This document shows positions 30,816 to 47,469 of a stretch of 64,000 nt of DNA, piece by piece (position 1 is the stretch's first letter; each line of letters opens with the position of its first letter). The notes under the pieces are model-generated. The model saw only the letters and a program-made list of their open reading frames with translations. It was not told where the DNA came from and made no database searches. The translations under genes were made by a program, and so were the position numbers. This DNA comes from Amphiscolops sp. MND2022 (lineage: Eukaryota), in assembly GCA_964187785.1 (NCBI GenBank), contig OZ076414.1:6324001-6388000 (forward strand), read 5' to 3'.

Positions 30816-30941
30816 CTCAGTTCAAAATCTACTGAACTTTCTCTACAGTGAACGATGTTGTTACTTACTTCTAGTTGTTATCAAATTGGGGAAGTTTTTT
30901 GAGTTTTCTGAGCAATTTGGCTAAATTTGCTTACATGCGGT

Positions 30942-31624
30942 AGTAGTATAGGGGATTGCGGAGATGAGACCAGTTCAGAAAAAAGAATAAATAAAAAAAC
31001 AACGTTCGTTTCACTCACTCTCATTCGCTTCGCTCATTCGTGTTTTTTTATTTATTCTTTTTTCTGAACTGGTCTCATATCCGCAATCCCCGTAATTATT
31101 GTTTTTTTTGCTTGACATTGTTGATGTAATTGTTTTTTTGTTTGATATTGGTGATGTAATTGTTTTTTCACTCGATTATATTTCTATTTTTGAGTAAGTT
31201 TATGTTAATATTTTTAGCGCTGTAGACTTGAAACTAGAATGAAATCTCGAACAAAAACTCGAACAAAAACTCGAATAATATTCTAACTCGAACAAAATTC
31301 AGAATAATAATCTTGATTTCATTCTTCATTCTTTTATTGTATTTTAGCACGTGCGTTTTATTGCTCTCAGCGATGACTTTCAATTTTCTTACTCTAATTG
31401 GCCACTTGAGAAAAAGTTGAACACTTGAATGAGTTTAATTACACCACTTAATATGAAATTTGATACAAACTTTTTTCAGGGATAACTATGAGGAGTTGAA
31501 TGTTGTAGTTTTTGTAGATATGTTTGTCTTGATGAGAGGATTAAAACGAAATGTCGATGGTTAAAATCGGTTCTTTAGATGTGAAAATAACAAAGTGAAG
31601 AACAAATGTTTTTGAAAATGTTCT
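30942..31624 (+). repeat. Left terminal inverted repeat (~683 bp)
   Basis: Reverse complement of 46763-47446 with a few substitutions and indels; contains a 50-bp-stem hairpin and CTCGAACAAAA repeats. Confidence 0.96.
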
Positions 31625-31689
31625 ACCTCGAACAAAATTTTTTTGAAAGTGTTCTAACTTGAACAAAAACTCGAATAATATTTTGATAT

Positions 31690-32355
31690 TCATTCTTGAT
31701 ATCGTTCTTCATAATTTACAAACCTCAGAGTCCAATATAATCTTCGATCTTCTTCAATTAAAGCTTCTCGAATATCTCTTTCGATAGATTTTACAGCTGT
31801 ATTAATAATATGTTCATCTTTTCGTAATTCATCTGACAAATCAAATATCAATATTCCTTGCATTTTAACCACTTCAATATTCAATTCTTTATCATTTTGT
31901 AATCTTTCTGAAGCATTAAATAATGTTAAGGGGTCATTTTTTATTGAAGCTAAAACAATTTCTTTATCATCTTTTAATTCATCAGAAGCATATTGTAAAG
32001 CATATTCATTTATTTTAACTAAGTCCATCATTAAATTTCTATTGAAAATAACAAAATCACCAGGTTGTGTTGTTTCTAAGTATAAAATTTTATCATAAAA
32101 TTCAACAATATTTCCATTTAATGTGAAAGTAAAATTACTTCTTTCATAATCTTCTTCGATATTACCTTCAAAACTATTTAAGCACTTATCATTTTTATCA
32201 CAAGGTTTTACAAACTCAATAAGAGTTCTATTAATAGGGGAGGTAGCATTATTTTTCATCCATCCTTGTAAACATTTTTCTTCATACATATACCCATCAC
32301 TACACATAACTGGATGTCTAATTCCGATTTGATTGATTGGACAAAGTGGATTCTT
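31690..32355 (-). pseudogene. U-box plus DUF4116-like repeat protein (putative viral E3 ligase); start codon apparently ATG to AAG
   Basis: The in-frame N-terminus reads NPLCPINQIGIRHPVMCSDGYMYEEKCLQGWMKNNATSPINR, which fits the U-box pattern. The C-terminus has ALQYASDELKDDKEIVL-type repeats. Confidence 0.78.
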
Positions 32356-32390
32356 TTATTAGGTTTATTTTATTTGAATTGTTATTTGAA

Positions 32391-45815: not shown

Positions 45816-46571
45816 CTAAGCAAATGGATTGGTAGAAGGAAGGTATAGGGTATTTAAATTCTTCCGATATTTGCCATCGTTTTTCTTTTTGGTTAAATCA
45901 ATAGTTATAAAGTTATAATCATCATTCCACACATCATGACAAAATTGTTTAAACTCTTTTATTACCATATCTGTAGAAGATAGTTGTCTATGAATGCATT
46001 CTACATTAGCAAAATTATTAGTGGTAAAAAAAGTGGTGAATAATTGTTGAGTTTTCTCTTATCGTGTCTTTAGGAAGCTCGTAGAAGCCGTGTGATATGA
46101 CGAAAATTGAAAGATTGTTATGATGACCCCTCTTGAATAACATTTGAAGACGAGGGTCTTGTAATTGTTGTTTGTTCAAGTCATCAAGAATTATTACAGT
46201 ATGTATGTCTGATTCATATTCTTGAGGATCTTTCAATTCATCTATGTTGTCATAACTTTCACATTCTATATTCGATGTTTCAAAGTCTTCATCGTTGATA
46301 ATTTCTTCTATTGTAGTGTCTAGTTCATCAAGAGGAATTTGTTCTTTTAAAATATTTTGAATAACGTTCAGAGGTAAGAAACTGTTGAAGCATTTGATTA
46401 TAGTTTTATAAGTTGGTTGATGAATAGTTGGAGAAAATATTAAAAAATTTTATCGAATTCGTTTATTATGTTGAATAATATTTTAAACAGGAGAGTTGAT
46501 TTACCACTTGCTGTTTTACCTGAGATAATACATCGCACAGGTTTTTCAGGATAAAGGTTTTTTTCAATCAT
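45816..46571 (-). pseudogene. A32/FtsK-like genome packaging ATPase, frameshifted
   Basis: Walker A GKTASGKS (~46500-46523), Walker B IILDD, and RGHHNNLSIFVISH..Y..P..IREN. Confidence 0.93.
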
Positions 46572-46730
46572 TTATATTTTTAAAATTCTTCTCTTTGATT
46601 GAAAGAATAGATATCCTAAAACTAATATAACCATAGCTATAACTATTATAGCAATTGGAATGGTAAATACTAGAGATTGTTTGAATACATCCACCATGTT
46701 ATCTGTATTCGTACAATTTGTTACATTCAT
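46572..46730 (-). CDS. 52-aa single-pass membrane protein
   Basis: MNVTNCTNTDNMVDVFKQSLVFTIPIAIIVIAMVILVLGYLFFQSKRRILKI: two N-sequons, one TM segment, basic tail; its TAA abuts the ATPase ATG. Confidence 0.7.
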   Translation of the reverse strand: MNVTNCTNTDNMVDVFKQSLVFTIPIAIIVIAMVILVLGYLFFQSKRRILKI

Positions 46731-46762
46731 TTATTTACTTGTAAATAGACACCAATCTAAAC

Positions 46763-47446
46763 AGAACATTTTCAAATACATTTGTTCTTCACTTTGTTAT
46801 TTTCACATCTACAGAACCGATTTTAACCATCGACATTTCGTTTTAATCCTCTCATCAAGACAAACATATCTACAAAAACTACAACATTCAACTCCTCATA
46901 GTTATCCCTGAAAAAAAGTTTGTATCAAATTTCATATTAAGTGGTGTAATTAAACTCATTCAAGTGTTCAACTTTTTCTCAAGTGGCCAATTAGAGTAAG
47001 AAAATTGAAAGTCATCGCTGAGAGCAATAAAACGCACGTGCTAAAATACAATAAAAGAATGAAGAATGAAATCAAGAATTTTATGCTGAATTTTGTTCGA
47101 GTTAGAATATTATTCGAGTTTTTGTTCGAGTTTTTGTTCGAGATTTCATTCTAGTTTCAAGTCTACAGCGCTAAAAATATTAACATAAACTTACTCGAAA
47201 ATAGAAATATAATCGAGTGAAAAAACAATTACATCACCAATATCAAACAAAAAAACAATTACATCAACAATGTCAAGCAAAAAAACAATAATTACGGGGA
47301 TTGCGGATATGAGACCAGTTCAGAAAAAAGAATAAATGAAAAAACACGAATGAGCGAAGCGAATGAGAGTGAGTGAAACGAACGTTGTTTTTTTATTTAT
47401 TCCTTTTTTCTGAACTGGTCTCATATCCGCAATCCCCTATACTACT
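46763..47446 (-). repeat. Right terminal inverted repeat (~684 bp)
   Basis: Reverse complement of 30942-31624; ends CCCCTATACTACT. Confidence 0.96.
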
Positions 47447-47469
47447 TGCGGTCTACTAGAGTAATAGTA

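Follow-up and report, generated by a model that had tools for sequence, protein, structure and literature searches.

A decayed Polinton from Amphiscolops sp. with a poxvirus-late-type start signal at nearly every gene and an exchangeable MAM-fold fibre head

What switches on the genes of a Polinton? The question is raised by a 64,000-nucleotide stretch from Amphiscolops sp. MND2022 (assembly GCA_964187785.1, contig OZ076414.1, positions 6,324,001 to 6,388,000; hereafter the window), in which a 16,505-bp Polinton occupies positions 30,942-47,446, with all of its genes on the minus strand and nearly every one of them preceded by the same short motif. A first-pass annotation had called the element an endogenous, virus-like Polinton, and this identification was certain: terminal inverted repeats (TIRs), a target-site duplication (TSD), a family B polymerase of the protein-primed type (pPolB), a major capsid protein (MCP), an integrase and an ATPase were all present. 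The Polinton class and the decayed state of the copy are known; new, as far as our literature search shows, are the family-wide start signal of poxvirus late type and an exchangeable head of MAM fold on the fibre. We propose, at a probability of roughly 55%, that transcription of the family would depend, as in virophages, on the late machinery of a large DNA virus that infects the same cell.

The signal consists of a run of T at positions -14 to -12 and a TAA directly before the ATG. Such a TAA stood at 16 of the 17 listed starts, compared to 16 of 410 other minus-strand ATGs (Fisher p 2e-19). As this list was drawn up after the motif had been noticed, an unselected count is fairer, in which 15 of the 30 minus-strand open reading frames (ORFs) of at least 40 aa began at TAA|ATG, compared to 5.9% in 200 shuffles. 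Host ORFs gave 0 of 73, a weak control made up of decayed retrotransposon frames. T filled 38 of 51 positions at -14 to -12 (background 31%; 0 of 5000 shuffles, with any position allowed), and the run distinguished starts (36/48 positions) from other TAAATG sites (18/48; p 4e-4). At -13, the centre of the run, 13 of 17 starts had T. The full pattern, derived from these same starts, occurred eight times in 64 kb, always within the element and on its coding strand, compared to 0.91 occurrences expected.

Relatives of the element carried the signal as well. TAA was found at 25 of 26 starts chosen by homology, a set that includes near-duplicates and leaves out first-ATG ORFs inside broken or cut genes, and the sole exception was an endonuclease gene at a different position. 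The clade at 48% capsid identity had TAA at 11 of 11 starts, T at 24 of 33 positions of the run (3 of 5000 shuffles) and T at -13 in 9 of 11. Two distant Polinton fragments lacked the signal in their coding-strand ORFs (0/6 in L013; 0/10 in L036, which bears PLA2 and has 31.9% GC). The vaccinia late promoter reads TAAAT, usually followed by G so that it lies over the start codon (PMC11980589, PMC5294985), with one conserved T, ten bases upstream, amid other Ts that are less conserved (PMC11980589). Because that 10th base corresponds to -13, the centre of the T-run, the match extends to the spacing, and at the level of sequence both parts of the signal fit the poxvirus late-promoter consensus.

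If the signal were instead a host-type core promoter or translation-start context resembling the poxvirus one, the element would be an ordinary nuclear Polinton. A TATA-like box abutting the ATG would leave no room for a polymerase II start some 25-30 bases downstream, T at -3 is a poor translation context in animals, and the T-run has vaccinia spacing, all of which make this explanation unlikely, even though AT-rich motifs converge easily and the window holds no intact host gene for comparison. Also on its side, coral polintoviruses are reported to be expressed in ordinary transcriptomes (PMC11131425), and vaccinia late promoters are themselves targeted by host TBP, going by the title of a cited reference. 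Under helper transcription the context at -3 would be replaced by a slipped leader; a 5' poly(A) leader of this kind arises in vaccinia and in yeast linear plasmids through slippage of the polymerase on the AAA (PMC6211774).

The TAA was the stop codon of the preceding gene at only 2 of the 16 signal-bearing starts. This count bears on a model of one or a few long transcripts from the TIR, in which TAA|ATG would couple termination on one gene to initiation on the following one. The one-strand layout, the short spacers (-23 to 265 bases) and two genes that abut exactly at TAA|ATG would suit such coupling, but it is very unlikely given that 14 of the 16 TAAs are not the stop of any upstream gene and that a T-run at fixed distance is left unaccounted for. 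The signal might also be a relic of a helper-dependent ancestor, in a family that now spreads within the genome only; breaks or truncations affect the present copy and, in the nearest MCP cluster, 11 of 15 listed members, and IMG/VR scans with the MCP, an MCP alignment, a polymerase alignment and a TIR word returned no relative among viral contigs. However, the signal was kept across clades at 48% capsid identity while spacers diverged, and capsid differences among relatives fell mainly at third codon positions (58/87, 55/81 and 44/71), so that we consider a relic rather improbable. Finally, a factor or polymerase from another Polinton or linear-plasmid-like element of the same host could read the signal: yeast linear plasmids, which derive from Polintons (PMC11161782), use a TAAAN initiator with their own RNA polymerase (PMC6211774). 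No such gene was found in the element or in the partial relatives examined, and we give this source of supply very little credence.

Among the scanned pieces of the element, no RNA polymerase or transcription factor was recognised. As the signal is present in an element with no recognised RNA polymerase gene, the family is likely helper-transcribed. Each gene would be read from a signal of its own by a large DNA virus that supplies late factors of poxvirus type, with transcription starting within the AAA to yield a slipped 5' poly(A) leader, and the provirus would remain silent until a helper with such factors infected the cell. The one-strand layout may avoid double-stranded RNA from read-through late transcripts. 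By analogy with the class, the ATPase, protease, capsid and penton would build the particle, priming from the repeated ends is predicted for the polymerase via its terminal-protein domain, and the integrase would insert the linear genome with a 6-bp duplication, a step established for the class. In our reading, the binding target of the particle would be set by the exchangeable fibre head. Protein-primed replication and particle assembly are described for Polintons in PMC11161782, and endogenous mavirus-like elements have been linked to giant-virus partners by their promoter motifs (PMC8547959). A more specific version, in which the multi-copy family is an endogenous virophage of a poxvirus-like virus and all genes, polymerase and integrase included, depend on the late transcription of the helper, is held tentatively, at somewhat less than an even chance.

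Several points weigh against helper transcription. The signal is short and AT-rich, the relatives that carry it include near-duplicates with starts chosen by homology, and with only two outgroup Polintons it may be wider or narrower than the clade. AATAAA was not depleted in the element (30 vs 27.5) and likewise not in the host control (5 vs 4.3); depletion counts for ATTAAA, TTTTTNT and splice words gave no informative signal. The reported expression of coral polintoviruses in ordinary transcriptomes counts here too, and the gene at 35,697-36,754 could be the element's own regulator; it had no LxCxE motif, and its best Atlas match (0.81) gave no family. Both the L036 fragment, which lacks the motif, and Xenopus tropicalis Mavericks (PMC8097293) share the one-strand layout. 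The helper role and the transcript starts are predictions from sequence, and the host's own start context may match the signal.

The correspondence with a known viral transcription system makes the question of how Polinton genes are switched on testable, and the signal could sort helper-dependent from autonomous Polinton lineages. If helper transcription is true, the virophage lifestyle would reach beyond protists to true Polintons that bear an integrase and pPolB and whose host is likely an animal, perhaps together with defence by proviruses against large viruses. The more specific virophage version would also account for Polinton particles going unseen when there is no trigger, and it predicts an undiscovered pox-like virus of the host; no Maverick-Polinton virion has been observed so far (10.64898/2026.06.19.733378). 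Among the papers listed in our search, which did not extend to supplements, Repbase or subscription papers, where the family or the motif may already be described, none linked Polintons to TAAATG, to late promoters or to MAM fibres. The word 'promoter' was absent from the main text of PMC8502044, PMC10748475, PMC11161782, PMC11131425, 10.64898/2026.06.19.733378 and 10.64898/2026.10.13.758929, and the main text of PMC11296320 contained none of 'promoter', 'motif' or 'TAAAT'.

The second new feature is the fibre, which in a relative at 94-95% is a single 533-aa ORF. A model of its head (pLDDT 94.5) had the MAM beta-sandwich fold, matching scavenger receptor-C (8yt7; Z 14.3, rmsd 3.1, 152 aligned) and enteropeptidase (8zi4; Z 14.1), with the gingipain cleaved-adhesin domain close behind (Z 13.2). 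A head profile found eight PDB sequences, all of MAM-bearing proteins (E 1e-16 to 1e-6); the window fibre protein itself reached Pfam MAM only at E 0.054, and an Atlas search with the head gave only leads below 0.9. The fibre shafts of relatives matched phage tail-fibre families. Across 39 fibre relatives, 14 had a MAM head, 6 the unrelated head of L002 and 7 distant ones a third type, the remainder appearing truncated. Heads are exchanged, since L002, at 88% capsid identity, keeps the same N-terminus and has a different head (L002:1216-2515); its shaft is shorter, and the next ORF, of 133 aa, was not found in the window. The interest of the fibre lies in a MAM-fold head common to phage tail modules and swapped between close relatives. 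The first-pass annotation had drawn attention to an unusual accessory set, but the endonuclease, U-box/DUF4116 and SLATT-like genes are less telling than the start signal and the exchangeable head.

Recent capture of the head from a host MAM-array gene was considered and is not favoured, as the heads cluster apart from the array clade. In a quick tree (SH-aLRT support only; 128 rows, 32 of 159 matches dropped as short) the heads formed a clade (97) separate from long MAM-array proteins (98), on a weak backbone. Short MAM relatives in IMG/VR contigs lay beside tail sheath and tail fibre genes, and the head matched the L014 protein at 29% over 157 aa (E 2e-17). On these sequence relationships, a pool held in common with phages is the likely source of the head, and not recent host capture. 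MAM-like domains were also observed in tail-module genes of IMG/VR phage-like contigs (22 loci; L014:5749-6834, L015:4762-6792).

A search for sister copies, suggested in the first-pass annotation, was productive. Capsid searches returned 655 relatives among 3,686 candidates; the nearest MCP cluster (92%) had 83 members, with contigs up to 811 kb and 4 of 15 listed members of full length, and the polymerase cluster at 95% had 99 members. Among thirteen metagenome loci were relatives whose gene order is the same and whose capsid identity is 88-91% or 47-53%. An MCP tree of 38 rows, none of them a named reference, contained a close clade, a 48% clade and a 42% clade, and the earlier suggestion of an undescribed family is plausible. 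An animal is the likely host of the family; virion proteins of adintoviruses are described as restricted to animals (PMC8502044). The flanking retrotransposons may resemble those of acoels. The repeat table of one acoel assembly paper lists 'Maverick 4.5%', where the class is counted and not described (PMC6451197). In the relative L005 (88% capsid identity) an endonuclease gene (L005:537-1214), the one without the exact start signal, follows the capsid gene in the place of the protease. Because this copy, at 34% to that of the window, sits elsewhere, the endonuclease appears mobile. We also observed a short contig (L011:1-1317) in which fragments of the polymerase, the capsid end and, inverted, the integrase of a related element are joined.

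The length of the element falls within the published range for Polintons or Mavericks of 13-25 kb, with TIRs of 100-1,500 bp (PMC10748475). Both TIRs and the exact 6-bp TSD were as first annotated: the repeats, with termini AGTAGT...ACTACT, were 98.4% identical over 685 columns (8 mismatches, 3 gaps), and TGCGGT stood on both sides, a coincidence with a chance of ~4e-4. The 6-bp target duplication establishes integration by the rve integrase. Each TIR contained a 141-nt hairpin (z -15.9 left and -16.0 right; 0 of 200 shuffles each), and an Rfam scan of 29,500-48,500 gave no match. GC content was 29.6% in the element, compared to 37.0% and 42.4% in the flanks. A restorable host site with a homologue near 61160 had been noted, and a related empty site was indeed found there: the left flank (30,809-30,941) aligned with 61,036-61,167 at 80% over 136 bp and the right flank (47,474-48,166) with 61,174-61,808 at 77% over 703 bp, the hexamer occurring once at the junction in diverged form. 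This site is related and not identical, because ~15 bases to the right of the TSD (47,453-47,473), a short palindrome included, have no counterpart in it. The proposed nesting in a retrotransposon stood for a fragment. The host copy ends ~130 bp to the left of the insertion, and with only that much remaining the host element is a fragment, whereas the empty-site copy runs into gag-like, protease-like and rve pieces.

The first-pass annotation had also described the Polinton as complete, which holds for the outline only (both ends and the gene set), because most core genes are broken. Compared to intact relatives there were at least 13 breaks (6 frame changes, 7 stops). In the polymerase, frame changes lay near 34,820, 34,750 and 33,848 and stops near 33,737 and 33,272; the fibre had frame changes near 41,510 and 41,212, the penton two stops and one frame change, and the PZ-like, protease and integrase genes one stop each. 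Overlapping pieces suggest three further breaks, two in the ATPase and one in the core precursor. The capsid, SLATT-like, endonuclease and small basic genes are still open. An intact Maverick is one with all core ORFs uninterrupted (PMC8097293), which this copy is not. TIR divergence of 0.6% per copy predicts ~3.6 stops in 13 kb, of the same order as the 7 seen. Runs of 6-7 identical bases lay at 3 of 10 approximate positions of frame changes, and runs of 3-4 at the other positions; as the frame changes are not clearly tied to homopolymers, assembly error may account for some breaks only. The copy is a decayed genomic fossil, ordinary as a single locus and no longer functional alone, and decay is the commonest state of Mavericks, at 96% of vertebrate copies (PMC8097293).

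Of the 15,138 interior bases, open stretches of at least 100 codons covered 10,562 on the minus strand, compared to 1,380 on the plus strand (Table 1). This one-strand layout was considered as a novelty and rejected, being known from Xenopus tropicalis Mavericks. In reading direction, the element first carries a small hydrophobic ORF, the A32 ATPase, PZ-like, penton, small basic ORF, capsid, protease and fibre genes; then come small ORFs, the SLATT-like gene, two small Cys-rich ORFs, the endonuclease, the integrase, a gene without assignment, the polymerase and the U-box/DUF4116 gene. Of the full morphogenesis module claimed earlier, the MCP, ATPase and fibre shaft were borne out, the protease weakly, the penton by position and homology, and the core proteins by size and motifs. 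An MCP model (pLDDT 74.5) was a double jelly-roll that aligned to the PBCV-1 capsid (Z 24.6, rmsd 3.4, 343 aligned), the Sputnik capsid (Z 21.4) and the mavirus capsid (Z 19.2), and the MCP had no sequence relative in PDB. The penton had no Pfam match and its profile no PDB match; its homologue adjoins the capsid gene in other Polinton loci. In the protease, His, Asp and Cys were invariant. A single protease sequence had no PDB relative, and a profile of five relatives matched clan-CE viral proteases weakly (E 0.013-0.13), with ASFV S273R first (E 0.013) and adenain at E 0.1.

Some labels are our assumptions. We tentatively take the gene at 44854..45714 to be 'PZ', the SLATT-like protein to be 'PW-like' and the pieces at 38404..38845 to be the 'core precursor'; the last is a likely core protein by its size and protease-site-like motifs. 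The Cys and His in the N-terminal region of the polymerase are presumably those of a vOTU, by motif only. The polymerase is collinear with 1,084-aa relatives, in which Pfam shows PF03175 only and no HNH or VSR insert is apparent. With no start signal at the U-box/DUF4116 gene, its start appears to have been lost. A PLA2 (PLA2X) gene was not matched among 30 pieces at E 0.1, whereas the control gene in L036 matched at 6e-12. Local duplications were present in the element, as four 29-nt copies of the region of the protease end and fibre start (41886-42031) and as repeat pairs of 36 and 35 nt (45763-45949, 39768-39851). CpG was depleted relative to codon-shuffled controls in the element (193 vs 238) and in host ORF pieces (238 vs 287), as expected from host methylation.

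Table 1. Positions of the Polinton, its genes (in reading direction) and its insertion site within the window
Feature	Position	Strand	Remarks
Right TSD TGCGGT	47447..47452	+	
Right TIR	46763..47446		684 bp; same hairpin at 47,296-47,437
Start signal, T-run (-14..-12) + TAA|ATG	35510..46745	-	TAA in all 16, T-run in most
Signal-bearing starts, first 8	46730, 46571, 45714, 44781, 43888, 43715, 42417, 41885	-	
Signal-bearing starts, last 8	39751, 39004, 38845, 38375, 37720, 36754, 35719, 35510	-	
52-aa ORF with hydrophobic stretch	46572..46730	-	
A32-type packaging ATPase	45816..46571	-	In three pieces whose frames differ; PF04665 3e-6, Walker A piece
PZ-like conserved gene	44854..45714	-	28% to 278-aa L003 gene; internal stop near 45,082
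Likely penton (minor capsid)	44021..44781	-	Position and homology only; two stops, one frame change
51-aa basic ORF	43733..43888	-	Same place kept in relatives
MCP gene	42438..43715	-	PF21738 8e-14; open
Adenain-like cysteine protease	41992..42417	-	Internal stop near 42,160
Fibre with N-terminal anchor, phage-like repeat shaft and MAM-fold head	40289..41885	-	Head ~40,292-40,822
Small ORFs, possibly one broken gene	39814..40262	-	33 codons from start signal at 40,262; 69 aa from 40,023
SLATT-like two-helix membrane protein, 206 aa, open	39131..39751	-	Below cut-offs; 83% to L002
52-aa Cys-rich ORF	38846..39004	-	
Likely core-protein precursor, two overlapping pieces	38404..38845	-	Cys pairs, basic helix, protease-site-like motifs; no library match
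HNH/endonuclease VII-like gene, 225 aa, open	37698..38375	-	phrog_1035 1.4e-8; 34% to 225-aa L005 gene
rve (retrovirus-like) integrase	36845..37720	-	PF00665 2e-11; internal stop near 37,016
Unassigned gene or genes, three overlapping pieces	35697..36754	-	CxxC pairs, acidic tail; where 'Oncoid' genes sit
56-aa ORF with start signal	35549..35719	-	
pPolB with N-terminal TP/vOTU-like region	32391..35510	-	PF03175 on three pieces
U-box + DUF4116 accessory gene	31690..32355	-	DUF4116 8e-22, U-box 2.6e-4
Left TIR	30942..31624		683 bp; begins AGTAGT
Hairpin, 141 nt	30951..31091		9 bases inside left end; -55.8 kcal/mol
Left TSD TGCGGT	30936..30941	+	
Host site, 5' ORF region of LTR-retrotransposon relic	47453..48166	-	Resumes at 30,809-30,935
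Related empty site	61036..61808	-	Upstream of gag-like, protease-like and rve pieces (60,933-56,156)

Outside the element, the left flank contained a near-perfect palindrome of 251 bp (30078-30328; 125-nt arms, 97%, 1-nt loop). Elsewhere in the window were a tandem array at 17139-24980 (about four 1,990-bp units, 77-97% alike, of retrotransposon pol-like sequence), a tandem duplication of a retrotransposon gag/protease region at 58661-64000 (3.25-kb period, 99%) and, beside the left retrotransposon, a 332-aa open frame with no Pfam match (4327-5325).

The nearest class to the element is that of the Polintons/Mavericks, which are adintoviruses (Polintoviricetes) with a PF03175-type 'Alpha' polymerase (PMC8502044, PMC8097293, PMC10748475). 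It has in common with them its size, TIRs, 6-bp TSD, pPolB, rve integrase, A32 ATPase, protease and double jelly-roll capsid, as well as its decayed state and a one-strand layout like that of Xenopus tropicalis. It differs from them in the poxvirus-late-type signal at nearly every gene, the MAM-fold head and the 141-nt hairpin at each end, and unlike Alpha (Mayetiola-class) Polintons it had no detected PLA2X gene. The element has PF03175 and, by motif only, a putative OTU domain. An Alpha adintovirus is described with an OTU domain and a PF03175-type PolB (PMC8502044).

Like mavirus and the endogenous mavirus-like elements of Cafeteria (PMC8547959), the element is low in GC, integrated and equipped with TIRs, an rve integrase and pPolB. 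Promoter motifs point to a giant-virus helper for the mavirus-like elements, and may likewise do so for the element described here. It departs from mavirus in its capsid of Polinton type (PF21738), in the full-length polymerase of its relatives, in its likely animal host and in having a poxvirus-type motif instead of the CroV TCTA motif. Entomopoxvirus-associated Polinton-like viruses are proposed to be parasites of poxviruses in animals (Barth et al. 2024, PMC11296320), as we tentatively suggest here, but they carry tyrosine recombinase and primase-helicase genes (PMC11296320), unlike the window element. With the vaccinia late promoter and the TAAAN initiator of yeast plasmids, the signal can be compared part by part: TAAAT and G over the start codon and an upstream T are common to vaccinia and the element, whereas here the signal also precedes replication genes and belongs to an element in which no RNA polymerase was recognised. 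The fibre head, finally, shares fold and sequence with the MAM domain (8yt7, 8zi4) and with the MAM proteins of phage tail modules (L014, L015); unlike those proteins, it caps a Polinton fibre, is exchanged in relatives and stands apart from MAM-array proteins in the tree.

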